A DNA stretch of 64,000 nucleotides, taken from Candidatus Caenarcanales bacterium. GTDB lineage: Bacteria > Cyanobacteriota > Vampirovibrionia > Caenarcaniphilales > Caenarcanaceae. Made by a program: the position numbers and the translations under genes. The notes beneath the pieces are model-generated. The model saw only the letters and a list, made by a program, of their open reading frames with translations, was not told the origin of the DNA and searched no databases. This document shows, one piece after another, positions 11,998 to 64,000 of the stretch (positions are counted from its first letter, which is position 1; each line of letters starts with the position of its first letter). Location: contig JBGSRC010000001.1 in NCBI GenBank assembly GCA_041737745.1, forward strand, positions 18,866 to 82,865, given 5' to 3'.

Positions 11998-12960
11998 CTA
12001 CCAATAACCACGAACAGGCTGGCCCTGCTGAGGAGCAGCGTAAGTAGGAGCAGGAGGTGCTGGCAAATAACGCTTGTAAGGAATAGGAGGTGGCACAAAG
12101 TTAGCCTGCGCAATCACAGGACAACCAGGTGAACCAACATAGAAATCACCAGAACAATGAGGCTGTGCCGGTCTTTTTACCCGTGTAGTCCCCCAAGTAG
12201 CGCCAATTGAAGTTCCACCAGCAACACTCTCAGAATCAGTAGCACTACCACCGATGCTAGCTCCTATTCCGGTGCTGTAGCTTCTAACTGTTTCAGCGTA
12301 AGTACAGTTCAGATTGCCGACTAGATTTGCGGAATTTTTGGAAGCGATACGCGCTAAGCCGACTAGTGCAGCCTCAGTTGTGGCATATTCTTCCATGAAG
12401 ACATAACCGGTTCCGAGATAGCTGACGCAAGAAGGAGGAAGATTGGTGTCAAGTCCACAAACAATGATGGCACCGGACGGAACACTAGGACTAGCGCTGC
12501 TAATGGCTGAGGCTATGTATTCTTTCTCGTCATAAATTCCAAAAAGATAATCTTTGATTCTTGCTCTAAGTGGCGCACCGACGTTTACAACGCGACAGCG
12601 CGAATAGATCGAGTTGTCATTGATGGTCTTGGTCGGGTGAAAAAGTATATGAGGAGGAGTGAAATTCCATGGCCCATGAAAGAGCTGAGTATGCGAATAA
12701 GCACTAGGCGACATTAAGACGGCTTGGGTAGAAGGAGCGATGAAGCCCGAACTGTAACCTAGACCGGCTCCACTCTCAACGAGCACATTGCTTATTGAGC
12801 CACTGTTGCTGAGAGCGTTGTTCGTTCCCACCTGCGAGTTAGGGCCATTTGAGATAGCTCCGACCTGTGTGTCGGATTTACTCATAAGGGGGGTAAACAT
12901 TGTTCCCGCTAACAACAAGAGCGAGAGACTGATCTTCGTACCTAAAAGTCTTTTTGTCAT
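11998..12960 (-). CDS. Hypothetical secreted protein (Gly/Ser/Thr/Ala-rich, Pro-rich C-terminus)
   Basis: N-terminal signal-like segment MTKRLLGTKISLSLLLLAGTMFTPL. No recognisable catalytic motif. 320 aa single ORF. Confidence 0.4.
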   Translation of the reverse strand: MTKRLLGTKISLSLLLLAGTMFTPLMSKSDTQVGAISNGPNSQVGTNNALSNSGSISNVLVESGAGLGYSSGFIAPSTQAVLMSPSAYSHTQLFHGPWNFTPPHILFHPTKTINDNSIYSRCRVVNVGAPLRARIKDYLFGIYDEKEYIASAISSASPSVPSGAIIVCGLDTNLPPSCVSYLGTGYVFMEEYATTEAALVGLARIASKNSANLVGNLNCTYAETVRSYSTGIGASIGGSATDSESVAGGTSIGATWGTTRVKRPAQPHCSGDFYVGSPGCPVIAQANFVPPPIPYKRYLPAPPAPTYAAPQQGQPVRGYW

Positions 12961-15618: not shown

Positions 15619-17178
15619 TCAAATCCAACGGAAGAAATGATGCTTAGAATCGTTTAGCCCCACTATCTTCTCCGGATGAAAACGAAACTCGACTTCCTTC
15701 GAAGAAATATTTAGCCCATAAAACAAAGGCGCCCAATACACAAATGACCAAACGATACTGGCAATCAGACCCCAGACCAGAAGCCTTACCCAGCGCCATC
15801 TAGACTGCAAGAGATTAGTAAAAACCAAAGCCAAAGCACAAAAAGCAAAACAAACAGCCGGCAAGTAATGGTAAAGAAAAAGACAACGCTTGAGTCCCAA
15901 AAAAGGAAAATACAAAAGAGAAAAATTGAGCAGCAAAAAAACCTGAGTAAATAAATCACTACGCTTACTAGCCGGCAAAAGCCTAAAGTGTCTTGCAATA
16001 GGCGAAACAACAAGCCCAATGACAATAGGCACAAAAGCTAAAATCCCAAACCACCACAAAAGCGGATTCCCCATCCCAATCACAGCCCGAGTAAAGCCAG
16101 TGCGTCCGAGTGCAGCTGGGCTAGTCTCATAGACGTAAGCGATAGGCCGAAGCATAATAGGCCAGCCAGTAGCCACTGCGCAATAGGGATGAATGCTCTG
16201 AGGGTCAGTCTTGCCCAGCCCAAGGTTGTGGTGATAATCGTAAATGCCCTTATGATAGTTGTAGAGCTCACTGGTCTTCAGTTTATTTATCTGAAAATGT
16301 GGCGCTAGGACAAGCAAGTAAGCGAGCAGAGGAATCAGTCCAAAGCAAATAGGCAAGCTCAGTGCAGGCAGCCAAGGATAAGCAGCTCGTTTATTGAAGA
16401 GCTCAGTGATTTTCAGAAAACCAAAAAGACTAAGCAGCAGCTTGCGCGATCTAGGCAAAAAGAGCAAACAAAGACGCGAAGCAAAGCCGATCCCCAACAG
16501 AGCAAAAACAGCCCCCAAATAGCCCAGTCCGCTCCATTTGCAGCCGACAGAAAGACCCAGCGAAAGCCCAGCGCCTAAGTGCCAAAGCAGACGATGCAGT
16601 TGATTTGTTTTGCTCTGGAAGCCTTTCAGAAAAAGCAAGAGCCCTAGCAGGCCAAAGAAAATGAGGGCGATATTGTTGAACGCATAACGGCTCTCAGTCA
16701 GCAAAAAACCATCGAGCAAGGTGAGTAGACCAGCCAGCAGCCCAAAAGTACGGGCTCTAAGTTCTCTCTGTCCACTGAGACGGGCTAGATTGAGCGCTAT
16801 GCCAGCCATAAAAAGCGGAATGAAGCTGCCAATCAGCGCGTTAGCGCAACGATAACCGAAAGGCCCCTTCAGATAATCATCGGGAGCGAGATTGACGCCC
16901 AGCAAAAAAGCCAGTTCATTGGAGAGCTTGGTGCCAAGAGCGATGATCAGCTTTCCTAGAGGCGGATGAACATCATAAAAGACCTGCTGGTTTATGTAAT
17001 CGACCGCAAAACGGGCGAAATACACCTCGTCAAAGACAAAGAAATCAAAACGATCTAAGATCCAAAAGCGCATAGCCAGCGAAAGCCCAAGCAAAATCAC
17101 TAGCAAAATCTTGTAGCGGGCAAGTAGAAAATCACCGAGAGCACGCAACGAATAAGGCTTGGCTATAAGTTCCATCAT
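15619..17178 (-). CDS. GT39/GT83-type (PMT/ArnT-like) membrane glycosyltransferase
   Basis: The loop after TM1, FDEVYFARFAVDYINQQVFYDVHPPLGKLIIALG, carries the DE...HPPLGK signature of dolichyl/undecaprenyl-phosphate-sugar-dependent GT-C transferases. More than 10 TM segments. Start assigned to Met (MMELIAKP) at 17178, overlapping the leuS stop. The ORF extends to 17313. Confidence 0.6.
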   Translation of the reverse strand: MMELIAKPYSLRALGDFLLARYKILLVILLGLSLAMRFWILDRFDFFVFDEVYFARFAVDYINQQVFYDVHPPLGKLIIALGTKLSNELAFLLGVNLAPDDYLKGPFGYRCANALIGSFIPLFMAGIALNLARLSGQRELRARTFGLLAGLLTLLDGFLLTESRYAFNNIALIFFGLLGLLLFLKGFQSKTNQLHRLLWHLGAGLSLGLSVGCKWSGLGYLGAVFALLGIGFASRLCLLFLPRSRKLLLSLFGFLKITELFNKRAAYPWLPALSLPICFGLIPLLAYLLVLAPHFQINKLKTSELYNYHKGIYDYHHNLGLGKTDPQSIHPYCAVATGWPIMLRPIAYVYETSPAALGRTGFTRAVIGMGNPLLWWFGILAFVPIVIGLVVSPIARHFRLLPASKRSDLFTQVFLLLNFSLLYFPFLGLKRCLFLYHYLPAVCFAFCALALVFTNLLQSRWRWVRLLVWGLIASIVWSFVYWAPLFYGLNISSKEVEFRFHPEKIVGLNDSKHHFFRWI

Positions 17179-20132
17179 CAAAACACCACATTGACCAGTC
17201 TGCCGGGGACGATTATCACTTTTTTGGTGGGATTGGCTCCTAGTCTGGCGCAAATCTTGGCGTTGCTGAGCGCTAATCTTTCCAGTTCTTCGCTGCTGGC
17301 TGATTTTGAGCAACTGATCGCATCTACTTTTTTGCCATTGATCTGCAAAACCAGCTCAAAGTTTTCGTCAACAACACACTCAGGATCGAAGCTAGGCCAT
17401 GCGCTCTGGTGCACAAAGCCCTCCAAGCCCACTAACCCCCAACATTCTTGGGTGAGATGAGGAGCGAATGGAGCCAAAAGCTGCAGGAAATTTTTTAGAG
17501 CAAAGAGCTTGACTGAAGCCTGACAGACCAGCTCTTGGCGGGTGAGTATATTTAGCAGCTCAAAGAGTCGAGCGATGGCCGTATTGAAGGCATAACGGTC
17601 AGCTTGCAAGTCGTGACTGACAGCTCTAATAGTCTTGTGCACTGCTCTGATGAGCTCTGCTTCGCCCTCTTCTAGACTGGCCAAATCAGCACTGGCAAAC
17701 TCTTGAGCTGGAATGTTTTGTAGTTTGTCAGCCTCAGAGCTGACTAGGCGCCAGATTCGCCCCAAAAACCGTGACTGTCCACGGGCTCCATCTTCTGACC
17801 ACTCGATTTCGTCACTGGGAGGACCGGCAAAGAGCATGAAAAGCCTCGCAGCGTCAGCTCCATGTTCGGCCACAAAAGAGTCTATGGCCACCACATTGCC
17901 GCGTGACTTGGACATTTTGGCCACCTTGCCCTCCTTGGGGCTGTGCATAGTCACCATCCCTTGGCTGAGGAGACGAGTGAAGGGCTCAGAAAAATCGAGC
18001 AAACCGACGTCACGGAGCGCCTTAGTGAAAAAACGGGCATACAAGAGATGCAAGATGGCATGCTCGATCCCACCGACATATTGGTCTACTGGCAACCAGC
18101 GCTTGAGGGCCTCAGCCGAGAAGGGCTCTGACTGGTTCTGGGCGTCAGCAAAACGTAAAAAATACCAACTAGAACACACAAACGTGTCCATGGTATCGCT
18201 CTCGCGAGTAAGCTTTTCGCCAGTTTTGGGGTCTGTATAGCTGAGCCAGTCGGCGCATTCGCTCAGTTTTTTGTATTCGCTATTTTTTGGGAGCTCCACT
18301 GGAAGCTCTTCGTAGGCTACTGCTTTCGCTTTACCCTCTGCGTCGTAGACAAGCGGAATAGGCGTTCCCCAATAGCGCTGTCTGCTCACTAGCCAGTCTC
18401 TGAGTCTGTATTGAATTTTTAGACGGCCGAAGCCAGCTTGCTGGGCGTAAGCAGCCATTTCTTGTTTGGCCTGACTTGAACTCAGTCCGGAAAAAGCTCC
18501 AGAAGAATGGGTGTAACCGTAATCGCAATAGGCCGCACCGATAGTCAAATTCTTGACATAAAACACATCGGCAGCCACATTGTCGTTGTAGCGTTCAGTG
18601 GGGACGAAACCACAAGACTGGTAGAGAGCATTGGCGGGGGCAAGCACGACGCGACTATCGAGATAGACTTCCTTGAAGCCCAAGCCTCTGGCCTGCTCGT
18701 CAAAGAAACTGATCAATTGGCGAGCAAGTCCAAGACCACGAGCACTAGGTGCAATGAACATCCTTCTCAGTTCGCAACGATCGGCGTCAAGCGGCCTGAG
18801 TGAGATTGATCCTAAGATTTCTTGGCTATCTTTTCGGCGGAGAATCCAAAAGATATTGCCGTTGACGGCGTATTCAGAGAGGCTCTGATCGATTTCTGAG
18901 GCTTGCACGCCATAGTCGCTTTTTAGGTTTGCAAAATATTGGCCGAGAATCAGCTCACAGTCTCTGAGGTGTGTTTCATTGAGCGGGTCGATGCGCTGTA
19001 GCAGATACTCACTAGGTAGAGCTCCAAGCCCAGCCTTGGCGGCAATCACCGGCTTAATCGGCAAATGATATTTATTGGCGAAGAGAAAATCTCGCTCATC
19101 GTGAGCCGGTACGCCCATCACCGCTCCAGTGCCATAGTTGCCGAGGACATAATCCGCTATCCAGACAGGCACCCGCTCGCCACTGTAGGGGTTGATCGCA
19201 TAAGAACCGGTGAAGACGCCTGTCTTATCCCCTTGTTGTTGGGTGCGGTCAAGGTCGCTCAAAGCGGCGCTTCGCGCCCTGTACTCGTCGACCTTTCGGC
19301 GCTGAGCGGGGTGAGTGATCTCAGCTACCAGTTCGTTTTCGGGAGCCAGAACGAGATAGCTGACGCCGAAGATCGTATCTAATCTGGTGGTGAAGACGGT
19401 GATTTTTTTTGGTGAGCCTTCGAAAACAAAGTCGATTTCCGCCCCTTCAGAGCGCCCAATCCAATTCCTTTGCATGGTCTTCACCTGCTCTGGCCATTCT
19501 TTTAGGAGCTCTAGATCGTTGAGGAGCTCTTCGGCATAGACTGTCACTTTGAAGAACCATTGGGCTAAGAGCTTCTTTTCGACCAAGACCTCGGAGTGTC
19601 GCCAACAGTAGCCGTCTTCAACCTGTTCATTAGCGAGCACAGTGCCGCAGGCTGGGCACCAGTTGACCGGTGATTCTTTGCGATAGACCAGACCTTTTTC
19701 GTAAAACTTGAGAAAGATAAACTGAGTCCAACGATAATAATCTTTGTGGCAGGAAGCTAGTTCTCGTGTCCAATCAAAGCTGGTGCCTAGTGATTTTAGC
19801 TGGCGACGCATATTGGCCATATTCGCCTCAGTCCAGTCGCCCGGGTGAATGCCTTTGTCTTGGGCGGCATTTTCGGCCGGAAGACCAAAGGCATCGAAGC
19901 CCATTGGGTTAAGTACATTGAAGCCTTGCATGCGCTTGAAGCGGCTGATCACGTCAGCGATGGTATAGACTCTCGCATGTCCCATGTGCAAGTCCCCGCT
20001 CGGATAGGGGAACATCACTAGCGAGTAGAATTTTGGCAGTGGTGATTCTTCTTGTGCTTTGTCTATGCCGCTTTCAGCCCATAGCTTTTGCCATTTTTTT
20101 TCTAGCTCTGAGGGGGAATATTGGTCTGACAT
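17178..20132 (-). CDS. leuS: Leucine--tRNA ligase (LeuRS) with an in-frame GNAT acetyltransferase-like insertion
   Basis: HMGH (HIGH) and KMSKS motifs, a CP1 editing domain (TTRLDT...[30 protein letters not shown]) and [15 protein letters not shown]. 984 aa. Residues ~372-530 form an extra ~155 aa module with GNAT motif A ([19 protein letters not shown], matching Q/R-x-x-G-x-G/A) and YQSCGF motif D. Confidence 0.85.
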
Positions 20133-36246: not shown

Positions 36247-38160
36247 TTAGTTAGGTGGCAAGGCGAAAGCGGGGCAGGCTGCATTTCTTGGTGCAACAAC
36301 TGTTGTTTCACAAGTAGTAGTAGTGTTGCCCGCTGGGTCGGTAACTGTAACAAGATCTCTTCTGATTGTTTCTCGAAAACAGCCGCATTGCTTGAGATAG
36401 TTACAGTCGATACGGACATTCATTGGGTTGAAGGCCGTATAAGGTGTATTTGACCAGACTTGAGCTACAGTGCTGATCATGGTCGCTGCGTCCACTCGAA
36501 CAAAAAAACCACACGGTTCTGGGTCAGGAGTTCCACCACAATTATCCTCAATGACACAGGATGAAAGCGGACAAGCGCTCAAGTTTGTCGAAAGTATTGC
36601 TGCCTGAAGCTGACCACTGTCTAAAAGCTGATTGCCATAGGAAGCAGTTCTATTACAAATAAGATTGAATTGATTGGAGGGGGTATTTCGGATAGCAACG
36701 ATAGGACCAGCATTATTTGCAGGAGCAGGTGGGGCTGGAAAGTTCACTAGATCGAAAACAGTTCCAGCTCCGGGAAGGGCAACAGGCTGGGCTGGAAACA
36801 TACCGTTGAAGCTAGCAGGCTGGTCAGTGCCATCTGTAGTCAGGATGCGGTTTTGGGTGAGAGGGACACTCACAGAATTGACGTAGTTAGGGCTAGTAGA
36901 TAGGGCTGTGCGGGTGGCAAAGCGAGCACCGACTACGATCAGTGGGTCAAGCGAACCGGCATTGCGGAGATTGCGCACGCCGATCAGCTGAGCTGGACTC
37001 TCTGAACCGGAAGCCAATCCAGCTGGCCCAATACTACCAATCGTTGAATTAAAGCCTCCAGCCACTGCACGAACATATTCAGTTCCTAGGATCGGTATAG
37101 CGTTACCGTTGTATGGAGGCAAAGTGGCAGTACTGATACCGGTGAAGATCGCATTTCGTCTAGGTCTCCCCAAAGTACCGATAGGCGTTCGCAGATAAGA
37201 ACCAGTAGGTGGATGAATGAATTGCGCTTCATCATTGGGACAATTTAGTCCAAGGCATTCTAAATAAGGCACAGGTCCAGCATTGAACTCTACCTGCCCA
37301 TAGGGCTCGCGCCTATCTGGTCCTCCGTCTTGAGAGAGAGATTCTAGATCGTAACTGCGCCCTGTTCCACTATCAAAATTAGCGCCGGGTTCAGAAAGAG
37401 CCGAAGCCGTGGCCTCCAAATAATAACCATTGAAAACTGGGCTGTTTGGATCACCGGAAAAGAAGCGACGAAAAGCGGTAAAGAGACTCTGAGCAAACAT
37501 CGGCCAAGCGGCTGGACTATGAAGCTTCACAAAGTAGCTCACTGTTCTTCTGGCTGGATCAATCACCGCGTAGCAGGCATTGTATTCTCGGATCTCATCA
37601 GCACGTTGAGCAAAGGGTCTTGATTGGCCAGGGTTAGCTGGGTCTGGCTCGACATTAGTCAGTCTAGTACCTCCAGCTCTCAAGCCCGGTACTAGTCCTA
37701 CTATTCCAATACCAGCTGGGAGGGGAACATTGGAAGTGCGCGGTGTTTCGAGGTTCGCTAACTCTTCTATAGAAAGCGGCGGGCCATTGTCGACATTGCC
37801 GCCCGCAGCTGTTTTAGCTGTTCCTTGGCGAGAAACGTTCACGTCGATGATTCCACTTCTGATACCAGTCAGATTCGCCAGAAGAGGGTCACGAAATTCA
37901 TTTCTATATCCCGGTGGCAAAGGGCCAATGGCATTGAAAGCAGCATTGCAGCGACCGCGAAAATCTTCATACGGAAAATTAGGATTATTGGCGGCAGAAC
38001 GAGCAATAAGCTGAGCAGCCGTAAAGAGCGTTGAGCGTTGCATATAGCTATAGGCCAGCTCATAGAAGATCATGAACAAAAAGAAATAAATTAAAATCAA
38101 TAGCGGCAATTGAAAAGTCGTTGAGCCGCGCTTTTTACGTTTAAAATTTTCTGAAATCAT
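36247..38160 (-). CDS. Large hypothetical membrane-anchored/secreted protein with TadE/pilin-like N-terminal segment
   Basis: N-terminus KRGSTTFQLPLLILIYFFLFMIFYELAYSYMQRS resembles TadE/TadG-like prepilin-type hydrophobic segments. The remainder is Pro/Gly/Asn-rich with no known motif. 637 aa. No other tad genes nearby. Confidence 0.35.
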   Translation of the reverse strand: MISENFKRKKRGSTTFQLPLLILIYFFLFMIFYELAYSYMQRSTLFTAAQLIARSAANNPNFPYEDFRGRCNAAFNAIGPLPPGYRNEFRDPLLANLTGIRSGIIDVNVSRQGTAKTAAGGNVDNGPPLSIEELANLETPRTSNVPLPAGIGIVGLVPGLRAGGTRLTNVEPDPANPGQSRPFAQRADEIREYNACYAVIDPARRTVSYFVKLHSPAAWPMFAQSLFTAFRRFFSGDPNSPVFNGYYLEATASALSEPGANFDSGTGRSYDLESLSQDGGPDRREPYGQVEFNAGPVPYLECLGLNCPNDEAQFIHPPTGSYLRTPIGTLGRPRRNAIFTGISTATLPPYNGNAIPILGTEYVRAVAGGFNSTIGSIGPAGLASGSESPAQLIGVRNLRNAGSLDPLIVVGARFATRTALSTSPNYVNSVSVPLTQNRILTTDGTDQPASFNGMFPAQPVALPGAGTVFDLVNFPAPPAPANNAGPIVAIRNTPSNQFNLICNRTASYGNQLLDSGQLQAAILSTNLSACPLSSCVIEDNCGGTPDPEPCGFFVRVDAATMISTVAQVWSNTPYTAFNPMNVRIDCNYLKQCGCFRETIRRDLVTVTDPAGNTTTTCETTVVAPRNAACPAFALPPN

Positions 38161-44721: not shown

Positions 44722-46051
44722 ATGACTGCCAGTATAAAAAAGAGTAAACATTTGACTTTGTCTCAGAATCAAAAAATCGCTATTATTGGCCTCGGCTATG
44801 TAGGCCTTCCCCTTGCTGTCGCTTTTGCTAAACGCTTTCCCACCACCGGTTTTGACCTTAGCCAATCCCTGGTCAGCTCGCTCAAGGCTGGTACTTGACC
44901 CGATGGGTGAAGTTGATTCAGCTGATTTGGTCGCTTCAGGCCTCACTTGCAGCACCGATGCCGCCGATCTCGCTCACTCAAATGTCTTTATAGTCACTGT
45001 CCCCACCCCCTGCAATAACGCCAATCATCCTGATCTGAGCTGCATCACGGCCGCCACTAAGAGCATTGCGCCGCTTTTGAAGCATGGTGATTTGGTGATT
45101 TATGAATCGACAGTTTATCCCGGTGTCACTGAAGATCTCTGTGTGCCTATTCTTGAGGCTGGTTCGGCTGGGCTAAAGCACAAGGTCGATTTCAATGTAG
45201 GCTATTCTCCTGAACGGATCGTGCCGGGTGATAAAGTCCATACGCTTCAGAAAATCGTGAAGATAGTCTCTGGTGATACACCTGAAACGCTAGAGCGGGT
45301 TGCTAGTCTTTATGAGCAAATCGTCGAAGTGGGCGTGCATAGAGCTGGTAGTATCCGTGCTGCTGAGGCGGCCAAGCTGGTAGAAAACATACAGCGTGAT
45401 GTGAATATTGCTTTGATGAATGAGCTATCGATTCTTTTCAGTCATTTGGGGATAGACACGCACGAGGTGATTCAGGCGGCGGCAACCAAGTTCAATTTTT
45501 TGGCTTTCACTCCTGGTTTGGTGGGAGGGCATTGTATTAGTGTCGATCCGTATTACCTTACACATCGGGCTTCCATTGCTGGCTATAAGCCAAACCTGAT
45601 GCTCTTTGCTCGGCAGATCAATGAGAGCATGGCTGACTTTGTGGCTGATAAGACTTTGCAGCTGATGCTGACTCATGGTCTGTATAGCAAGCAGTCTAAG
45701 GTCTTGGTTCTGGGAGTTACTTTCAAGGAAAACGTTTCTGATACTCGGAATTCCAAGGTTTTCGATTTGATTGCAAGGCTGAAATCTTTCAATTTGTTGG
45801 TAGAGGTGGCTGATCCACATGCTGATCCGGAGTCTGTGAGGAGACATTATGGGGTGGATCTGGTAGCTGAGCCTGCTCAGGGAGAGTATGCTTGTGTGCT
45901 TTTGGCTGTGCCGCACAAGATGTATATTGACAAAGGGTGGGAAACAGTGCAAAATTATCTTCACGTTAATAAATCCTCTTTGGTAGTTGATTTGAAAGCT
46001 AAGCTACCCAGAGATACAGTGCCCCCCCATATTACTTTTTGGAGACCATAG
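44722..46051 (+). CDS. UDP-N-acetyl-D-glucosamine/UDP-sugar 6-dehydrogenase (TviB/WbpO/CapL type), interrupted by an apparent +1 frameshift at 44896
   Basis: Frame A: MTASIKKSKHLTLSQNQKIAIIGLGYVGLPLAVAFAKRFPTTGFDLSQSLVSSLKAGT then TGA (44896..44898). Frame +1 continues DPMGEVDSADL...FIVTVPTP...VYESTVYPG...GYSPERI...PGLVGGHCI (catalytic Cys)...FKEN to 46051. Colinear with TviB-type dehydrogenases only if one nucleotide is skipped at ACT T GAC. Confidence 0.65.
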
Positions 46052-46055
46052 GTTT

Positions 46056-47360
46056 ATGTTTATCGAATATCAAATAATACCCACGATATTGATTGGCACT
46101 TATTCGCTCATACCTTTTGCTCTTGGGGGGCTTTTTCATTTTTACTTTCGCCAATTTGCTGTCAAAAAAGATTTCAGCTATAAACCTAGCGTAAGTATCC
46201 TTCTATCTTGTTATAACGAAGGTGAAGCAGTTTATAAAACTATTGAAAGTTTAGTCAATTCGAACTATCCCAAAGATAAACTAGAGATATTGGCTTTTGA
46301 TGATTGTTCTAAAGATGATAGTTTTTTCTGGTTAGAGAAGGCCGCCGAAGATTTTCCATGCGTCATAGCTAAAAGAAACTCGGTCAATAAGGGCAAAGCT
46401 CATACTCAAGTTGCAGCAGCAATGCAGTCAACTGGAGAAGTGCTTTTAGGAATTGACTCGGATTGTTATTTTGATCCTAATGCCATATCGGAACTTGTTT
46501 CATGTTTTAGTGAACCAAATATTGCCGCTGTCGGTGGGCAGGTCGGTGTTTCTAATGCAAACGCGAACTGGCTAACACGTTTCCAAGCTTACGAATACTC
46601 CGTTGTTTTCTTATTTAGCAAGGGCATGGAAAGTTTCTTTCGTAAAATACAATGTCTCAGTGGCGCTTTTTTAGCAATCAAACGTGAGCCATATTTCAAA
46701 GTTCTTCCTGATATAGTTAATAGGGAATTTTTAGGGCTCAAAGTGCCTTACGGAGAAGATCGTTGGCTTACTCAGATGCTTCTTTCCCATGGATATGGTA
46801 CTTATATGAACCCTGAGGCGCTTTGTTTTACTGAAGTTCCAAGCAAGGTTTCCGTTTACCTTAACCAGCAACTTAGATGGCGAAAAGGTGCTTTGAATTG
46901 TTTCTTCTCAAGTCTTTTTCAATGGAGCCATTTCAATAAAAATAGGAGTCTTTTTTGTTTTTTCTTAGCTTGTTTGCCGGCTCTTTGTATGCTCTCATGG
47001 CTTGCTTTATTTATAGACTCTTGGCTGTCTAATAATCTTTTTACCTTACTTTGTTTTTCACTTAAAGCAAACGTTGTTGCCACTGCTTTATTTGGCCTTT
47101 TTTACTTTGCTACAAAAAAATCCCTTCCCTATAAATTCGATTTTGGGCTAGCAGCCTTTGCTGAATCACAGCTATTACTGTGTCTTTGGTATCCAATTAA
47201 TGGACTTGTTTTAACAACTTTTTCATTTTTGACTCTTGACAATGTCGGCTGGGCAACCAGAGGCTCAGTCCCAGCAGCTGCTTCTCGGACATCGATAGAA
47301 CCAGAATCGACACCCTTAGAATTAATAGGAATTCCTGTCCTTGCAGGTCAAGCCAAATGA
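46056..47360 (+). CDS. Processive family-2 glycosyltransferase (cellulose/chitin/hyaluronan-synthase-like; D, DxD, ED, QxxRW motifs)
   Basis: SILLSCYNEGE, FDDCSKDDS, GIDSDCY, GEDRWL and QQLRWRKG. TM helices lie on both sides of the catalytic domain. 434 aa. Confidence 0.7.
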   Translation: MFIEYQIIPTILIGTYSLIPFALGGLFHFYFRQFAVKKDFSYKPSVSILLSCYNEGEAVYKTIESLVNSNYPKDKLEILAFDDCSKDDSFFWLEKAAEDFPCVIAKRNSVNKGKAHTQVAAAMQSTGEVLLGIDSDCYFDPNAISELVSCFSEPNIAAVGGQVGVSNANANWLTRFQAYEYSVVFLFSKGMESFFRKIQCLSGAFLAIKREPYFKVLPDIVNREFLGLKVPYGEDRWLTQMLLSHGYGTYMNPEALCFTEVPSKVSVYLNQQLRWRKGALNCFFSSLFQWSHFNKNRSLFCFFLACLPALCMLSWLALFIDSWLSNNLFTLLCFSLKANVVATALFGLFYFATKKSLPYKFDFGLAAFAESQLLLCLWYPINGLVLTTFSFLTLDNVGWATRGSVPAAASRTSIEPESTPLELIGIPVLAGQAK

Positions 47361-48415
47361 TTGTAGCTAAGCTTCATTCTATATATCTTGCTCTTTACCG
47401 ATCCGTTGGATTTCTCTTTTTAGTAACTCTTATCGGCGCGGTGTTCTTTTACTTTGGGGTGATGATCTTTTTCACTGTAAACAAATCATGGGCCCTTCCT
47501 GTTGTTCTCTCACCATCACAAGACAAAGTCCTCCAATACCAATCCCAAGCCGCCAACTTCAAATACACCCTCGAAAAACAAAAAATAGAACTGCAAGAAG
47601 CCGAAATAACCCTCACCGAAAAAACAAAATCCCTAGAACAACTGCGCACCCTTAAATCTAGACTGAATAAAACAATCAACACCGAAGCTAATCGCTCACA
47701 ACAAAACAGCCGCGCAGTGATTGCCATAGTCCCAGAAATGAAGACACTAATTAGCAGGGGAGAGAAGCTCAGAGAAAAATTGAGTGCCCTAAACGCTACA
47801 ACCGATTCTGAGCTTAAGGCTGGATTAATAACGAAAGACGAAGCCACCCTCAGACGCAAAGAAGAACTCACCTTCTCCTCAGACCTAGTCCAAAAGAAAG
47901 CCACAATCAATGCCCTCACCCAAGAAAGCCAAGAGCTGAACTCAGTGGCCAACACGCTCAGAGGAGGCACAGACTCACTAGCTAGCTCGCAGGTATACAC
48001 GTCATTAGCTGACCTAGACCTTAAAATCGCTCAGCTCAGTATAGACTTGCAGACACTAGAAGCCTCAATCAGTTCGCTGAGAGTGGCAGTGAGCGAAGCG
48101 GAGCGGGTCTTAGGGGTGATGGAAGACAGTCCTCATTTTCTAGCGCTCACAAAACCGGTGAACATTGCTTTTGTGCCTTACGAAAACATCAATGATCTGA
48201 AGGAAAATACCCCTGTTTATGTTTGCTATCTGAAGTTTTTGTTTTGTCATAAAGCTGGAAAAATCGAGAAAGTCTATGATCGCTCTGAAGAATACGCCCG
48301 CCATCCAGTGTTTGCAACTGAGCTGAAAGGACGTTTTTTGAGGATCAATTTTCGCTCTAAGGAAGACGAGCAGAGCGAGGTTATATTTATTGGCCGTAGG
48401 CCTTTGTTTGTCTGA
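47357..48415 (+). CDS. Membrane-anchored coiled-coil protein (HlyD/periplasmic-adaptor or polysaccharide co-polymerase-like)
   Basis: N-terminal TM helix, then about 200 aa of coiled coil, then a C-terminal beta-rich domain. ATGA overlap with the synthase gene suggests translational coupling. 352 aa. Confidence 0.4.
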   Translation: MIVAKLHSIYLALYRSVGFLFLVTLIGAVFFYFGVMIFFTVNKSWALPVVLSPSQDKVLQYQSQAANFKYTLEKQKIELQEAEITLTEKTKSLEQLRTLKSRLNKTINTEANRSQQNSRAVIAIVPEMKTLISRGEKLREKLSALNATTDSELKAGLITKDEATLRRKEELTFSSDLVQKKATINALTQESQELNSVANTLRGGTDSLASSQVYTSLADLDLKIAQLSIDLQTLEASISSLRVAVSEAERVLGVMEDSPHFLALTKPVNIAFVPYENINDLKENTPVYVCYLKFLFCHKAGKIEKVYDRSEEYARHPVFATELKGRFLRINFRSKEDEQSEVIFIGRRPLFV

Positions 48416-57947: not shown

Positions 57948-59735
57948 TCAAGATTCAATCACTTGATAGCCTCTAGCACCTCTATCTATTGCACTCACTT
58001 CATAGCCACTAGCGCTAGTATCTATAGCAAAAGTGAGTCCCATCAAGCTTTTTAGTACTGTTTTGGCTGCTTCTTGGTCATTGGCTTGTTCACCAGAGTA
58101 AGGAATTCCTTTTTCTTTGATTTTTAGTGAGGCAATGCTCTCTTCGCCTGCTTTACTAACAAGGGTGAGGCAGAAAATACCGCTTTCTTCTTTGAAGGTT
58201 AGTTTAGTGGCTTTGAAGAGGGCTGGTGTTGCTGAATCGAAGAGTTTTTTGGCTACTTCATCAGTGCTGGCTGGTTCAAGCAGATTTTTGATGGCGAAAG
58301 CGTAGAAAGCTTGTTCATCTGGGGTTTTTTCGGGGATATTTTTCGCTAAAGTGGTGAAGGCTGTGTAGTTTTCTAGTTTATTGGGGTTGAGGCGAGGGAT
58401 TATATTCTTGTAGAGTTCAGTCCATTTGGATGCAGCGCCTGTTGGTTCTGTGCTTTGGATTAGGGCTGAGACACTGGAACTGACGTCATTTAGGCTTTTG
58501 CCGGTGGCAAATTGATTGATTTGATTGAGGTTTTTCAGGCCATATGATGTATTGTCTTCTGTTGTTTTTGGGGCTAAATAACTTTCAAAACGGCTAAATT
58601 GTTTTGGGTCTGATAGTACTGGCAGAGCGTCGGTTTTAGTTGTGTCTATTCCTTCGAAATATTTCTTGTAGGTGGCGAGTTTTGCTGTTTTCTCTTCAGC
58701 TGAAAGCTTAAGCGGCTCAATGAAGCTGTGAAGCAGAGTATCGGCGATCACCAAGCGCGCTTGGATCGGAACAGTTTCTAGTTTGCTGGGATCTAGATAT
58801 GGCTTTATTTTTTCGCTGGCTAGACGATTTAAGACAAACTGGAGGGGACCGGAATATTCTGGGTTGTCGGTGAAGGTTTGGAGGGCTGCTTTATCAGCAA
58901 AGAGCTTATTTTCGCCTACTAATAGATTTTCAAATTCTGTCAGTATTCCTGTTGTTGGTTCTGTTATTCCGGCAGGCAATGTGATTTTATTTGTTGCTGC
59001 TGGTGTTTGAGTTGTTGTCGGAATTGTGGTTGTGGTGGTGGTTGTTATTGTTGTTGCTGTAGGAGTTTTTATTGTTTCTGTTTTTGTTTCAGTGGTTGCT
59101 AATGGTGAGTTTGTTTGTGTTGAGGTGGTGCTTGGATTTTCGGGGGTGCATTTGCAGGAGGGATCTGCTGTGGGGGTGGTGCTTGTTCCGGAGGAGGTGG
59201 TAGCTTGAGTTTCTTCTTCTTTTGACTTTATTAAGCCATCAGTCAATGCCTTGAATTTTGTTTCATCGTAGTCATAAGAGACTATTTGTTTACCGTCAAC
59301 GTTTCTATTGAATAAAACGGAACCTAATTCAGCTTCTAGTTTTACATTTGGGTTATAAGAATTTTCTGTGGCTCCATCAAAATTGGAGCTGGTCTTAGTA
59401 ACTGTTCTTTTGTCTTCTCCCTTTTCACTCAAAGTCCCTATTCCATAAAGAAACTGGTCAAGTTCAGTCTCGTTTTCAATTAAATAATTTCCTGTTGCAT
59501 TTGAAAAACTATTGAGAACAGCATTGCCATCATTAGCAACATCATTCGTGAAAGCGGCCGTATCGCGAAGAAGTCGATGCTTCAACACCTTAAGATCGAG
59601 AGTTTTGCCTGCAGCAAAGGCTTCTTTTGCTTTTTCTTTGAATTTAGCTATGCCTTTGGTGATTTGGCTCTCTTCCAAAGCCTTATTGAAGGTCTTTAAC
59701 TGCTCAGCGTTAGGGTTGAAGTTGGCTGCGTTCAT
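57948..59735 (-). CDS. Hypothetical Lys/Thr-rich protein with mucin-like poly-Thr/Pro tract
   Basis: Single long ORF, 640 aa to the first ATG at 59870. MNAANFNPN at 59735 is a plausible start. Central tract TTTTTTIPTTTQTPAATNK. No clear signal peptide. AT-rich relative to its neighbours. Confidence 0.4.
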   Translation of the reverse strand: MNAANFNPNAEQLKTFNKALEESQITKGIAKFKEKAKEAFAAGKTLDLKVLKHRLLRDTAAFTNDVANDGNAVLNSFSNATGNYLIENETELDQFLYGIGTLSEKGEDKRTVTKTSSNFDGATENSYNPNVKLEAELGSVLFNRNVDGKQIVSYDYDETKFKALTDGLIKSKEEETQATTSSGTSTTPTADPSCKCTPENPSTTSTQTNSPLATTETKTETIKTPTATTITTTTTTTIPTTTQTPAATNKITLPAGITEPTTGILTEFENLLVGENKLFADKAALQTFTDNPEYSGPLQFVLNRLASEKIKPYLDPSKLETVPIQARLVIADTLLHSFIEPLKLSAEEKTAKLATYKKYFEGIDTTKTDALPVLSDPKQFSRFESYLAPKTTEDNTSYGLKNLNQINQFATGKSLNDVSSSVSALIQSTEPTGAASKWTELYKNIIPRLNPNKLENYTAFTTLAKNIPEKTPDEQAFYAFAIKNLLEPASTDEVAKKLFDSATPALFKATKLTFKEESGIFCLTLVSKAGEESIASLKIKEKGIPYSGEQANDQEAAKTVLKSLMGLTFAIDTSASGYEVSAIDRGARGYQVIES

Positions 59736-59849
59736 GGCTGAATATCCTCTCTCAGAAAAATCAAATCTATATATCAAATATGGAATACCAAGAATAGTAA
59801 AATGACAAGAAAGGATTAAAGTAAAGATATTGAAAATAGCAAAAAACAG

Positions 59850-60617
59850 ATGCCTAAGACACTTCTCCACATCAAAAACCTCACCCTAGCCATAAACGGC
59901 AAAGCAATCCTCCAAAATATCAACCTAGAACTAGAACTCGGTCAAAGACTAGCCCTAGTAGGAGAATCAGGCTCAGGCAAAACAATGCTCGGCTCAGCGA
60001 TCCTAGGCTTACTCCCCCCCCAAAGCCTCCTAGGTGGCCAAATAAGCTACAAAAACAAACCCCTCACACAACAAGACAAAAGCGCACTCAGAGGCAAAGA
60101 AATAGCCTATATCCCCCAAAATCCCTTTACAGCCCTAAACCCCGTCAAAAACATCGGCGATCATCTCCTAGAAACCATAGAAGTACTTTGCCCTAGCCTC
60201 CAACAACCAGCAAGAAAAGAACTAGCAAACGATCTGCTCACAAAAGTCCAACTAAAAGGCTGGCAAACAATGAAAGACCTCTACCCCTTCGAGCTCTCTG
60301 GTGGCATGGCTCAGCGTGTGATGGTGGCTCTTGCCCTTGTTGCCTCACCCAAGCTGCTGATAGCTGATGAGCCGACCACTGCGCTCGATCCAGAGACTCA
60401 AGCGGAAATATTGGCGCTAATCGAAGGGCTGGTAAACAAAGCTGAGATGACCTTGATCTTCATCACTCACGATCTAGCCATTGTGAAAGACCTCTGCGAG
60501 CGGGTTTGTGTGATGAAAACAGGACTGGTAGTGGAAGAAGGGGTCACTTCTCAGATCTTTCAAGCTCCCAGAGAGGTTTATACGCAAGAACTTTTGGCGG
60601 CGGCTTTTTATTTATAG
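59850..60617 (+). CDS. ABC transporter ATP-binding protein (Opp/Dpp-type nucleotide-binding domain)
   Basis: Walker A GESGSGKT, signature LSGGMAQRVMVA, Walker B LLIADEPTTALD, H-loop ITHD. 255 aa. No adjacent permease or solute-binding protein gene. Confidence 0.7.
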   Translation: MPKTLLHIKNLTLAINGKAILQNINLELELGQRLALVGESGSGKTMLGSAILGLLPPQSLLGGQISYKNKPLTQQDKSALRGKEIAYIPQNPFTALNPVKNIGDHLLETIEVLCPSLQQPARKELANDLLTKVQLKGWQTMKDLYPFELSGGMAQRVMVALALVASPKLLIADEPTTALDPETQAEILALIEGLVNKAEMTLIFITHDLAIVKDLCERVCVMKTGLVVEEGVTSQIFQAPREVYTQELLAAAFYL

Positions 60618-60863
60618 ATGAAGAAGAAACTTAATTTTTGTTTGATTGTTGTGTTTGTTTTGTTGAGCGCGGCTCAAGCGAAAGAGGCTGTCGATCTGGT
60701 GATTTATAACCATCAGACCAAGAAATTTCATCACCCAAGCTGTGAGTGGGCGATCAAATGCACCAAGAGTTGCGATATTGTCAGTCGTGAGGAGGCTCTT
60801 CGACGCCTTGGGGTTCCGTGTCAGGTTTGTGGGTCTGCTGGTTTGCCTGTGCCGAGGATTTAG
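60618..60863 (+). CDS. Small secreted protein with Ada-like Cys4 zinc-binding motif
   Basis: Signal peptide MKKKLNFCLIVVFVLLSAAQA, then FHHPSCEWAIKCTKSCDIVSREEALRRLGVPCQVCGS. Compare the Ada N-domain FCRPSCRARHALRENVSFYANASEALAAGFRPCKRCQP. 81 aa. ATG immediately follows the ABC gene stop. Confidence 0.45.
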   Translation: MKKKLNFCLIVVFVLLSAAQAKEAVDLVIYNHQTKKFHHPSCEWAIKCTKSCDIVSREEALRRLGVPCQVCGSAGLPVPRI

Positions 60864-61717: not shown

Positions 61718-61837
61718 GCATTGTTAGTGATGGCCATTTAAGACGGGTGGCTATCCCTTCTTGGCTCTTGATTTGTTTAAAGTTTGAGGCAACAGGGCAA
61801 GTTTTGAATAGGTCTTTAACTAACATTGAGTAGAATC

Positions 61838-64000
61838 ATGCCTGCTGCAAAATTATTAAAACTTCTAAGTTTCTTTGCTCTCTTGAGCTTTCTGGTTTCT
61901 TGTAAAACCTGTCCTCCCGGTGACGTGGACTGTATAGTCAAAAACGTCTTTGGAAACAACGACAACGATAATTCGAGCGATGATGACACTATTACTGATG
62001 TCAATATTTCACCCGGAACTGGCTCGCCATCAGTGTCAGTCGGTGGCTCGCCATCAGTGTCAGTAGGTGGTTCGCCATCAGTGTCAGTCGGTGGCTCGCC
62101 ATCAGTGTCAGTAGGTGGTTCGCCATCAGTGTCAGTCGGTGCTTCGCCATCAGTAGCAGTAGGTGGTTCGCCGTCAGTGTCAGTAGGTGGTTCGCCGTCA
62201 GTGTCAGTAGGTGGTTCGCCATCAGTGTCAGTAGGTGGTTCGCCATCAGTAGCAGTAGGTGGTGGTTCGCCGTCAGTGTCAGTAGGTGGTTCGCCATCAG
62301 TGTCATTAGGTGGTTCGCCGTCAGTGTCAGTCGGTGGTGGTTCGCCATCAGTGTCAGTCGGTGGTGGATCGCCGTCAGTGTCAGTCGGTGGTGGATCGCC
62401 ATCAATTGTAAGAACATCTGACTGTGACGGTAGAGTGCCTCCAGTGACAGTCAATTCTATAAATACTGACGTAGCCTTGATTGCGCTGGCAGCATCAACC
62501 CTACAAACTTCATCGGCTAGTGAGATCAATGATTTTTTACTCACAGCAGGTTCACCACTCAGTGGCGATTATGCAAATCCTTTGTTGATCTCGCAAATAG
62601 CAAATTATGATTGGGACAATAACGGCAAGACTTCAGTAGAAGGCGATAGAGCTGATTTAGAGTATACGCTCTTGGTTTCTTTGCTACCGAATGCGGCTAA
62701 AACGCCTGAAATGATCGAAGAAGCGATCACAAAATCAAACAAATTGCCATTGCTTTTAAGCAGAGTACAGATTGGTCAGAATGCTTGCTTGTTTTGCGAG
62801 CTAAATTGCGGCGAAGATGGTTGCGTCACAGTCTGTGATGGCGATCCAGATGATGGAACAGGAGCAGGCGTAGGTGCAGGCGCTGGACCAAATGATGGAA
62901 CAGGTGCAGGCGTAGGTGCAGGAGCTGGACCAAATGATGGTACAGGAGCAGGTGCGGGTGTAGGCGCTGGACCAAATGATGGAACAGGTGCAGGCGTAGG
63001 TGCAGGCGCTGGACCAAATGATGGAACAGGTGCAGGTGTAGGTGCAGGCGCTGGACCAAATGATGGAACAGGTGCAGGTGTAGGTGCAGGCGCTGGACCA
63101 AATGATGGAACAGGAGCTGGCGTAGGTGCAGGCGCTGGACCAAATCCGACCCCAACTACTCCAAGTTGTAGTCCTCCACCGGTGCCTCTCAACGAAATAG
63201 ATGAAGCGGAATCACTGATCTCACTCATTGGTTTTATTAATCCAGAGTTTAGTTATGAAGAATTATTGGCTTCGATCGAAGCTGACTATGGAGTGATCCT
63301 AGACCCAACTTTTTTCACCCCTGAAAAAGTGAAATCAATTCAAGAATATGACTGGGATGGAGATGGCATTAAAGCTAGCACAAACGATTCAGCTTTAGTA
63401 GCAGCTGTCAGCCTAGCTAATAGACGTGGAGGCAATGCAACCAAACAATCAGTCGAAAACTATGTAAATAATATTCTGGAATTCGATCCGCCTCTAGTAG
63501 CGGCAAGCGAATGTGTTTTTGCGCCAGCAATTAACCCATCACCCAGTGAAGTAATAACAAGTCCAACGCCGAGTGCTCCAGTAACTAGTCCTTCAGCTTC
63601 ATCCAGTCCGGTAGTCTGTGACTGCCCTCCTGATGCAGGTTGCCCTCCGGGAGTAGAAGCTTCCTCTGAGACTTTTGAAGTAGACTGCGCTGCTGGAGGT
63701 TCTGGTGGCGGTGGAGAAGATGTCTTGAGTGGTGGATCGGACAGCATCACACTTCCAAGGAGACTTACATGCACTCGTTCAGTCTGTGGAAGCGTAAAAA
63801 CGCCTGAAGCAAGTCCTACACCTGATCTTTTGGGTTGCGGTGATACTTGTCAACCGGGCGCCGGAAATCCTATTGCTCTAGGAACTAATGAACCTGATTC
63901 TTTCGATCTAGATGCTGCCTCTACGGGCACCATTGATGGCGGAAATGGAGACGATAATTTCAATTATTCAGGAGCTAGTATTGGCGCTTTAGATACCTTC
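61838..64000 (+). CDS. Very large repeat-containing lipoprotein (partial; continues beyond window end), with (SPSVSVGG)~16 and (GTGAGVGAGAGPND)~7 tandem arrays and Ca-binding-like DWD(N/G)(N/D)G and GGNGDDNF motifs
   Basis: Codon-by-codon reading from ATG 61838 gives 721 codons with no stop to the window end. The N-terminus MPAAKLLKLLSFFALLSFLVSC is a lipoprotein signal with an LVSC lipobox. The non-repeat segments (62400..62850 and 63140..64000) are open only in this frame. The ORF track lacks this ORF because it has no stop inside the window. The minus-strand ORFs listed there are fragmented. Confidence 0.7.
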   Translation, partial: MPAAKLLKLLSFFALLSFLVSCKTCPPGDVDCIVKNVFGNNDNDNSSDDDTITDVNISPGTGSPSVSVGGSPSVSVGGSPSVSVGGSPSVSVGGSPSVSVGASPSVAVGGSPSVSVGGSPSVSVGGSPSVSVGGSPSVAVGGGSPSVSVGGSPSVSLGGSPSVSVGGGSPSVSVGGGSPSVSVGGGSPSIVRTSDCDGRVPPVTVNSINTDVALIALAASTLQTSSASEINDFLLTAGSPLSGDYANPLLISQIANYDWDNNGKTSVEGDRADLEYTLLVSLLPNAAKTPEMIEEAITKSNKLPLLLSRVQIGQNACLFCELNCGEDGCVTVCDGDPDDGTGAGVGAGAGPNDGTGAGVGAGAGPNDGTGAGAGVGAGPNDGTGAGVGAGAGPNDGTGAGVGAGAGPNDGTGAGVGAGAGPNDGTGAGVGAGAGPNPTPTTPSCSPPPVPLNEIDEAESLISLIGFINPEFSYEELLASIEADYGVILDPTFFTPEKVKSIQEYDWDGDGIKASTNDSALVAAVSLANRRGGNATKQSVENYVNNILEFDPPLVAASECVFAPAINPSPSEVITSPTPSAPVTSPSASSSPVVCDCPPDAGCPPGVEASSETFEVDCAAGGSGGGGEDVLSGGSDSITLPRRLTCTRSVCGSVKTPEASPTPDLLGCGDTCQPGAGNPIALGTNEPDSFDLDAASTGTIDGGNGDDNFNYSGASIGALDTF

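Follow-up and report, generated by a model that had tools for sequence, protein, structure and literature searches.

A plus-strand gene at the edge of a Candidatus Caenarcanales genome window encodes a large modular protein with a lipoprotein-type signal and tandem-repeat arrays

The window analysed here comprises 64,000 nucleotides of contig JBGSRC010000001.1 (NCBI GenBank assembly GCA_041737745.1, positions 18,866 to 82,865 of the forward strand) from a Candidatus Caenarcanales bacterium. At its end, positions 61838-64000 of the plus strand are the coding strand of a real gene, whose complete product is hereafter called P0001. The gene call and the architecture of the encoded protein can be considered firm. 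As to its nature, P0001 is best explained as a lipid-anchored modular protein of the cell envelope or cell surface, with tandem arrays as spacers and with Cys-bracketed helical units, the DWD modules; the probability of this explanation as a whole is estimated at roughly 0.55.

The plus-strand gene and its complete product

Translation in frame +1 from the ATG at 61838 yields 721 codons up to the window end with 0 stops, in agreement with the uninterrupted frame proposed in the initial annotation, which had named a misread stop as one result that would overturn it. Over the same interval, the other five frames contain 56, 56, 63, 9 and 34 stops. Given the base composition of the region, 721 stop-free codons would arise by chance with a probability of ~2e-17 and 499, the number outside the repeats, with one of ~3e-12; the longest open run among 2000 shuffles reached 196 codons. 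An in-frame TAA at 61817, located 21 nt 5' of the ATG, makes this the first ATG of the frame, the only alternative start being a TTG at 61826. Moreover, when codon usage is scored by log-odds with 21 other window genes as the training set, the non-repeat segments of the plus frame each reach between +0.15 and +0.37, as compared with 0.18-0.26 for control genes, and all other frames score negatively there. The plus-frame protein also has homologues with 25-75% identity across the non-repeat modules. Therefore, the stop counts, codon scores and homologues together identify the plus strand as the coding strand.

The open reading frame (ORF) track on which the initial annotation was based listed five ORFs here, all on the opposite strand, and their coordinates were confirmed:

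61816-62544, minus strand: shadow ORF
62001-62417, minus strand: shadow ORF
62776-63228, minus strand: shadow ORF
62826-63155, minus strand: shadow ORF
63460-63774, minus strand: shadow ORF

These are shadow ORFs and not genes. The longest lies in the antisense frame that shares its wobble positions with the real frame, the classic shadow frame, which holds 9 stops. The opposite proposal, namely that the minus-strand ORFs are genuine genes and that the plus frame is open by an accident of repeat composition, is left with almost no probability. It can draw on array 1 (the first of two repeat arrays described below), where, taken alone, the antisense wobble-sharing frame outscores the plus frame on codon usage (0.41 vs -0.05), and on the distinct nucleotide variants of the repeats, 10 of 15 of which are synonymous in the plus frame (4/7 in array 1 and 6/8 in array 2), a count in which the plus frame ties with the antisense wobble-sharing frame, so that the variants do not separate the strands. 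Nevertheless, every minus frame scores negatively outside array 1, the minus-strand ORFs are spread over several frames, each with 9-63 stops across the gene span, and neither the openness of the non-repeat codons nor the homologues of the non-repeat modules would be accounted for. The gene had also been described as hidden behind antisense ORFs, a description that has to be withdrawn: the plus-strand ORF is absent from the track only because the ORF lister omits ORFs running off the window edge, and an NCBI record already contains a 1519-aa product identical over the part within the window. Since long ORFs crossing the edge drop from such a track while their antisense shadows remain, the impression of a hidden gene is procedural and not biological.

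That product was retrieved by an exhaustive phmmer search against 1.84 billion cluster representatives. P0001 is 1519 aa long, large and not giant as first thought, and its residues 1-721 are identical to those encoded in the window, which thus carries the 5' 47% of the gene. Hence the gene should measure ~4.56 kb and continue ~2.4 kb past the window, with its stop expected near coordinate 66397, a position obtained through P0001. The only true relatives recovered in this search were P0002 (1885 aa, E 7e-173) and P0018 (996 aa); the remaining ~1000 matches align only to the two arrays and represent unrelated period-8 or Gly/Ala-rich low-complexity repeats. All three proteins are singleton clusters with NCBI as their source. 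P0001 and P0002 both sit on a 122,765-bp contig and, therefore, are almost certainly paralogues on the contig of this window, while P0018 lies on a different contig of 576,741 bp.

The family appears to be a tiny, lineage-restricted orphan group with three detectable members. No Pfam domain was found in P0001, P0002 or P0018, and searches of Pfam, NCBIfam and PHROGs with the fragment, its pieces, the full-length proteins, the connectors and the C-terminal region returned nothing above threshold. Word-indexed protein searches with the two concatenated modules, the module profile A1 and the conserved block A2 added no further relatives. Look-ups of the exact products of P0001, P0002, P0018 and the neighbouring SDR (short-chain dehydrogenase/reductase) recovered no syntenic locus, nor did a genome-contig scan with module 2 recover any locus, and metagenome scans with module 2 and the SDR returned only SDRs of 31-38% identity. 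Finally, in a set of species-representative genomes, the closest matches to the HisD of the window, encoded 4 kb upstream of the target gene, were ~45-54% identical and came from Melainabacteria/Caenarcaniphilales metagenome-assembled genomes; tblastn detected no homologue of the target in these loci.

With regard to composition, the target gene has a GC content at third codon positions (GC3) of 0.30 in all segments including the non-repeat ones, most window genes showing 0.45-0.55; a high GC content at second positions (GC2) keeps its overall GC at a normal 0.49. The low GC3 could reflect compositional compensation or foreign origin.

Architecture: signal, arrays, modules and connectors

The part of P0001 encoded in the window is organised as follows:

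61838..61903, plus strand: initiation codon and signal peptide of lipoprotein type, aa 1-22, with the Cys22 codon at 61901-61903 (translation; PROSITE-type rule)
61904..62023, plus strand: aa 23-62, comprising the short start of the mature protein, which contains a Cys pair (C25, C32), and then an acidic linker rich in N/D; conserved in P0002
62024..62404, plus strand: array 1, 15 complete copies and 1 partial copy of an SPSVSVGG(G)-encoding unit of 24 nt, in some copies 27 nt (Tandem Repeats Finder, TRF; copy table)
62423..62788, plus strand: DWD module 1, aa 196-317, a helical unit bracketed by Cys, its loop YDWDNNGKTSVEGD lying at 62606-62647 (alignment A1; profile 94.8-96.3 bits)
62786..62836, plus strand: connector CLFCELNCGEDGCVTVC with five Cys residues, aa 317-333, almost unchanged in P0002 (CLFCKLNCGEDGCVTVC)
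62852..63145, plus strand: array 2, in which a 42-nt unit for DGTGAGVGAGAGPN occurs 7 times (TRF); interpreted as a second spacer
63167..63514, plus strand: DWD module 2, aa 444-559, five-helix, with the loop YDWDGDGIKASTND fitting Dx[DN]xDG (AlphaFold2, AF2; profile 124-125 bits; motif scan)
63515..63616, plus strand: Ser/Pro/Thr-rich linker, aa 560-593 (translation)
63617..63850, plus strand: eight-Cys element, aa 594-671, CDCPPDAGCPPG...ETFEVDCAAGG...LPRRLTCTRSVCG...GCGDTC (Cys map)
63851..64000, plus strand: first 50 residues of a block conserved in P0018 (P0001 aa ~666-850), with GGNGDDNFN at 63938-63964

The motifs quoted in the initial annotation (YDWDNNGKTSVEGDRAD, CLFCELNCGEDGCVTVCDGDPDD, YDWDGDGIKASTNDSA, VCDCPPDAGCPPG and GGNGDDNF) are all present as given, and so is the lipoprotein signal that it had read as ending in ALLSFLVSC. 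This signal, MPAAKLLKLLSFFALLSFLVSC, passes a PROSITE PS51257-type rule, with a Lys within the first 7 residues, six non-charged residues and F-L-V-S-C. The lipobox rule applied here, [LVI][ASTVI][GAS]C after an uncharged hydrophobic stretch, with the Cys at 15-35 and Lys or Arg near the N-terminus, is matched by the segment FFALLSFLVSC with its L-V-S-C lipobox, Cys22 and K5/K8, as expected for a bacterial lipoprotein signal. Counted from its Met16, P0002 gives the same result under the lipobox rule, and its N-terminus shares 76% identity with that of P0001. As in substrates of Lgt and Lsp (PS51257), a positive n-region and a hydrophobic core precede the lipobox, although typical lipoproteins are much smaller and less modular than P0001.

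Both arrays are real and lie in the plus frame. TRF delimits array 1 as a 24-nt unit repeated 15.2 times at 62020-62392 with 87% matches; a count by hand gives 15 complete copies, 4 of them of 27 nt, and a partial 16th, which refines the roughly 16 copies previously placed at 62021..62400. For array 2, TRF reports a 42-nt unit repeated 7.1 times at 62846-63145 with 92% matches, in line with the roughly seven copies first noted. All length differences between copies are multiples of 3 (3 nt in array 1). Array 1 spans 125 aa and array 2, the GTGAGVGAGAGPND array, 96 aa, and AF2 renders the arrays as coil with a predicted local distance difference test score (pLDDT) of ~30. P0001 and P0002 share 72-76% identity in the N-terminus and the first two modules, whereas their array sequences differ: P0002 bears Gly/Ser/Thr units with periods unlike those of P0001, namely a GGTSGS/TGNT unit at the position of array 1 (145 aa vs 125 aa) and a GGTTGSTSGET-type array at that of array 2 (129 aa vs 96 aa). 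P0018 contains yet another array, of SPSAMPSM type. Since position, rough length and small-residue composition are kept between the paralogues and the sequence is not, the two arrays are probably extended low-complexity spacers. The high DNA identity between copies, together with a hint of a 48-nt higher-order unit across the first four array copies, points to recent expansion or homogenisation, and variation in array copy number is plausible from the sequence.

The two non-repeat modules of the window are related to each other, as first suggested, with a tblastn E of 0.004 and scores of 94-125 bits for both against a 12-copy profile, and a third DWD module follows beyond the window at aa 910-1040. 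The profile derives from alignment A1, which gathers 12 copies from P0001, P0002 and P0018 into a Cys-bracketed unit of ~120 aa with a [YF]D[WY]xxxG loop at its centre. Cys1, Pro5, Asp62 and Cys116 are invariant, and a second Asp 12 positions after Asp62 is nearly so. Modelling of the fragment without an alignment was uninterpretable (pLDDT 38.5), whereas AF2 with the 12-copy alignment produced a model of module 2 with a pLDDT of 83.9 and a predicted template modelling score (pTM) of 0.78. In module numbering, its helices run over 13-24, 30-41, 52-60, 72-86 and 93-103, and the DWD loop connects the third helix with the fourth; in module 1, helices are likewise predicted on either side of the loop. 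No Pfam family matches the module. On the strength of this model and these searches, the DWD module is regarded as a previously undescribed helical domain, absent from Pfam and with no detectable structural neighbour in the libraries searched.

The Cys-rich segments are conserved to different extents among the three proteins. The first part of the eight-Cys element is strongly conserved in P0002 and its GCGxxC part in P0018. The block at aa ~666-850, lacking in P0002, is 69% identical to P0018, the rest of this pair sharing only ~25-40%. Downstream of the block, P0001 continues with Cys-rich connectors, module 3 and more connectors with a D-x-N-G-C-P motif, and it ends in a G/Q/N/S-rich region followed by a Pro-rich tail. 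The motif recurs as D-x-N-G-C-[PL] in the Cys-rich connectors of P0001 (aa 825-910 and 1040-1185), P0002 and P0018, for example as DANGCPIFRCGG, DANGCPTQGSGCGCEC and DRNGCPIWAYPACP. The motif has no match in Pfam, and it may represent a second undescribed small disulfide module.

Proposed role and alternative explanations

According to the explanation favoured here, P0001 would be exported, then lipidated on Cys22 and thereby tethered to a membrane of a diderm cell; the presence of a BamA/Omp85 gene at 379-2373 indicates that the host is indeed diderm. Export and membrane tethering are likely, and Cys22 is the predicted site of lipidation. Outside the cytoplasm, disulfide bonds would form among the 59 Cys residues of the protein, 58 of which are left after the lipidated one. 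The tandem arrays would act as extended, sequence-tolerant spacers that keep the folded modules off the membrane, and the DWD modules would be the functional units, five-helix bundles clamped by their terminal Cys residues. In these bundles, the invariant Asp-aromatic loop would bind a divalent cation, Ca2+ being the most probable one, as Dx[DN]xDG loops do, and the bound cation would make the module more stable for contacts between proteins or with cell surfaces. P0001 would most likely serve as a cell-envelope or cell-surface scaffold or an adhesin, although an adhesive or scaffolding role, judged by itself, is put forward with considerable doubt. For the family as a whole, we infer exported, acidic (the net charge of P0001 is about -104), disulfide-rich modular proteins with a putative role in envelope or surface scaffolding or adhesion.

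The general plan resembles that of large repeat-bearing bacterial surface proteins, such as adhesins with Ser/Pro/Thr-rich linkers: an anchor is followed by tandem low-complexity arrays and then by folded modules, and the arrays are nearly identical in DNA (87-92%) and differ between paralogues. In contrast with those proteins, P0001 has an unclassified helical domain as its folded unit, and no common adhesin fold (Ig-like, cadherin, VCBS, beta-helix) was detected.

The case for calcium starts from the loop of the DWD module. Besides EF-hands, a dozen or more unrelated contexts are known in which Dx[DN]xDG loops bind Ca2+ (Rigden et al. 2011, PMC3123361). In a motif scan, module 2 fits this linear pattern with DWDGDG (P0001 aa 505), as does P0002 at the homologous position (aa 573 and 1647), and DWDNNG in module 1 is a near-miss. 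The profile comparison of the non-repeat modules, called for in the initial annotation, which had described the loop as EF-hand- and dockerin-like, placed EF-hand proteins at the top in a search of the PDB (calmodulin, E 0.0026 and 0.006; centrin, 0.17), with YDWDGDG aligned to FDKDGDG. The EF-hand likeness thus stands in a weak form, and it extends to a helix-loop-helix with D-x-D-x-D-G in module 2 or D-x-D-x-N-G in module 1 and an acidic residue at the start of the exiting helix. By contrast, each ~120-aa five-helix module carries one loop and not paired hands. Matching the EF-hand geometry (a 12-residue loop with ligands at 1, 3, 5, 7, 9 and 12) requires an insertion, with positions 3 and 5 often non-ligand, even if helices flank the loop in the AF2 model. 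Membership of the Pfam EF-hand clan by a significant profile match failed, with no EF-hand family found in the fragment, the modules, the full proteins or even 60-aa pieces at E<=10.

The likeness to dockerins (PF00404) was not borne out. P0001 shares with them an extracellular type of modular organisation with Ser/Pro/Thr-type linkers and a D-x-[DN]-x-D-G loop that leads into a hydrophobic helix (STND...ALVAAV in P0001, STD...LLKRYL in dockerins); however, dockerins comprise ~70 aa with two duplicated loop-helix segments of ~22 residues, whereas the module of P0001 has 120 aa and a single loop. Pfam gave no dockerin match, none appeared among the PDB profile matches at E<=10, and hhalign assigned a probability of 0.6% against a CelS-type dockerin sequence.

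Several observations weigh against the explanation favoured here. The EF-hand similarity is borderline, with a best profile E of 0.0026 and an hhalign probability against calmodulin of only 33%, even though the P value of the latter comparison (4.6e-4) speaks in its favour, and Foldseek with the module model found no EF-hand or other similar structure in the searched libraries. The DWD loop counts 13 residues, from Asp1 to Asp13, vs 12 in EF-hands, the difference being a 1-residue insertion, and its positions 8 and 9 depart from the extended EF-hand pattern. In about half of the 12 copies, Asp, Asn or Ser is missing at loop position 3 or Asp or Asn at position 5, with Val, Ala, Pro or Phe in the degenerate ones, so that the conserved Asp-Trp may be structural and not a metal ligand. 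Moreover, the lipobox was assessed by rule only, and P0018, one of the three family members, has an ordinary signal peptide with no Cys, which means that the lipid anchor is not constant in the family. Taken together, Ca2+ binding by the DWD loop falls somewhat short of an even chance, while being plausible for some module copies.

Among the explanations that assign a different nature to parts of the protein, the SPSVSVGG array might form a triple-stranded beta-helix of octapeptide VxGxxxxx repeats, as in gp5 and VgrG, making P0001 a trimeric spike or fibre. The array matches Gp5_trimer_C of Pfam at E 2.8e-4 to 5.6e-4, a PHROG baseplate hub at E 0.002 and PDB chains of gp5, VgrG and a central spike at E 0.007-0.16, and both its 8-residue period and its V-x-G spacing agree with the octapeptide pattern. 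All of these matches are nevertheless sub-threshold (20.5 and 21.4 bits for PF22178 vs a cut-off of 30.9), the same query also matches many unrelated period-8 repeats, every unit includes a proline, and the array is modelled as coil. The non-octapeptide Gly/Ser/Thr array that occupies this position in P0002 further implies that such a fold is not conserved. Assignment to the C-terminal beta-helix family PF22178 was thus rejected, the gathering score not being reached and the best PDB E being 0.007, and the matches are attributed to the common 8-residue V-x-G periodicity; a spike or fibre is very improbable. Even less credible is an RTX-type adhesin or toxin secreted through a type I secretion system (T1SS), in which the nonapeptide at the window edge, initially taken as RTX-like, would start a Ca-binding beta-roll. 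Two nonapeptides do fit GGxGxDxUx, GGNGDDNFN at aa 701 and, beyond the window, GGAGSDSLV at aa 724; the protein is acidic and would be secreted, as RTX proteins are, and the corresponding block of P0018 reaches HemolysinCabind with E 0.047. But these two are isolated, 14 residues apart, and a third regular-expression match, GGGGEDVLS (aa 623), falls inside the Cys-rich element. No tandem nonapeptide array at the Pfam threshold of PF00353 was found, P0001 itself having no match and the P0018 block 14.1 bits vs a cut-off of 23. Furthermore, P0001 has an N-terminal lipoprotein signal, absent from T1SS substrates, in place of a C-terminal T1SS signal, its C-terminus is Pro-rich, and P0002 does without the whole block. 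On the upstream side of the gene, the five genes checked for a T1SS operon include a sole ABC gene, for a 255-aa ATPase in which only ABC/AAA ATPase folds were recognised.

A more serious contender, although still rather unlikely, is that P0001 stays in the periplasm as a lipid-anchored, extended acidic component, a spacer, tether or Ca2+ buffer whose length is set by the arrays, and is not a surface adhesin. The lipobox, the long spacers, the acidity and many Cys residues, and the diderm host all fit this possibility, as does the absence, among the five upstream genes, of a surface-export system or of any gene with a known link to surface export. Nonetheless, 1519 aa with ~220 aa of spacer is much more than is needed to span a periplasm, and a multi-module architecture shuffled between paralogues is more typical of surface or secreted proteins. 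At the other extreme, the DWD module could be a new Ca-dependent interaction domain, analogous to dockerins in function and structurally unrelated to them, that builds or attaches an extracellular scaffold in a deep-branching Melainabacteria-like lineage, with the arrays as slippage-prone length switches varying the reach of the modules; this is a speculative proposal, to which we give a low probability. The explanation preferred here remains that of a lipid-anchored modular envelope or surface protein.

Genomic surroundings and biological meaning

The window is chromosomal, as indicated by its genes for a GyrB/ParE-type topoisomerase subunit, an FtsW/RodA-family protein, HisD, leucyl-tRNA synthetase (LeuRS) and DnaG. 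Some of its other genes deserve mention in their own right:

17178-20132, minus strand: LeuRS of 984 aa with an inserted GNAT acetyltransferase domain (PF00583, aa 424-509, E 7e-14)
57948-59870, minus strand: 640-aa orphan with a Thr/Pro-rich low-complexity core
36247-38160, minus strand: 637-aa orphan
11998-12960, minus strand: 320-aa orphan
60618-60863, plus strand: 81-aa ORF with a signal-peptide-like N-terminus
44813-48415, plus strand: trio of a UDP-glucose/GDP-mannose dehydrogenase, a GT2/chitin-synthase-like glycosyltransferase and a 352-aa ORF

In LeuRS, the GNAT domain is placed after the editing domain, an unusual fusion. The 640-aa orphan, with no Pfam or PHROG match, has a low GC (0.41; GC3 0.35) and shares ~20 nt with the beginning of the divergent ABC ATPase gene (59850-60617); one base past the stop of the latter begins the 81-aa ORF, which has six Cys after its N-terminal segment and no Pfam match. 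The orphans of 637 and 320 aa, both with N-terminal hydrophobic segments and no Pfam match, show the high-GC2, lower-GC3 pattern of the target gene, and the C-terminus of the former is Cys-rich; they may be further envelope or secreted proteins. The trio at 44813-48415, in which the glycosyltransferase gene has a GC of 0.39 (GC3 0.30) and the 352-aa product a hydrophobic N-terminal segment and no Pfam match, looks like a cluster of atypical composition for the synthesis and export of a polysaccharide.

To our knowledge, almost nothing has been learned from experiment about the cell envelope of Melainabacteria-like bacteria. A large, exported, disulfide-rich modular protein with paralogues such as P0001 would be a reasonable candidate for a structural component of the surface or envelope in these organisms, and the DWD module lends itself to structure determination and to tests of Ca2+ binding.

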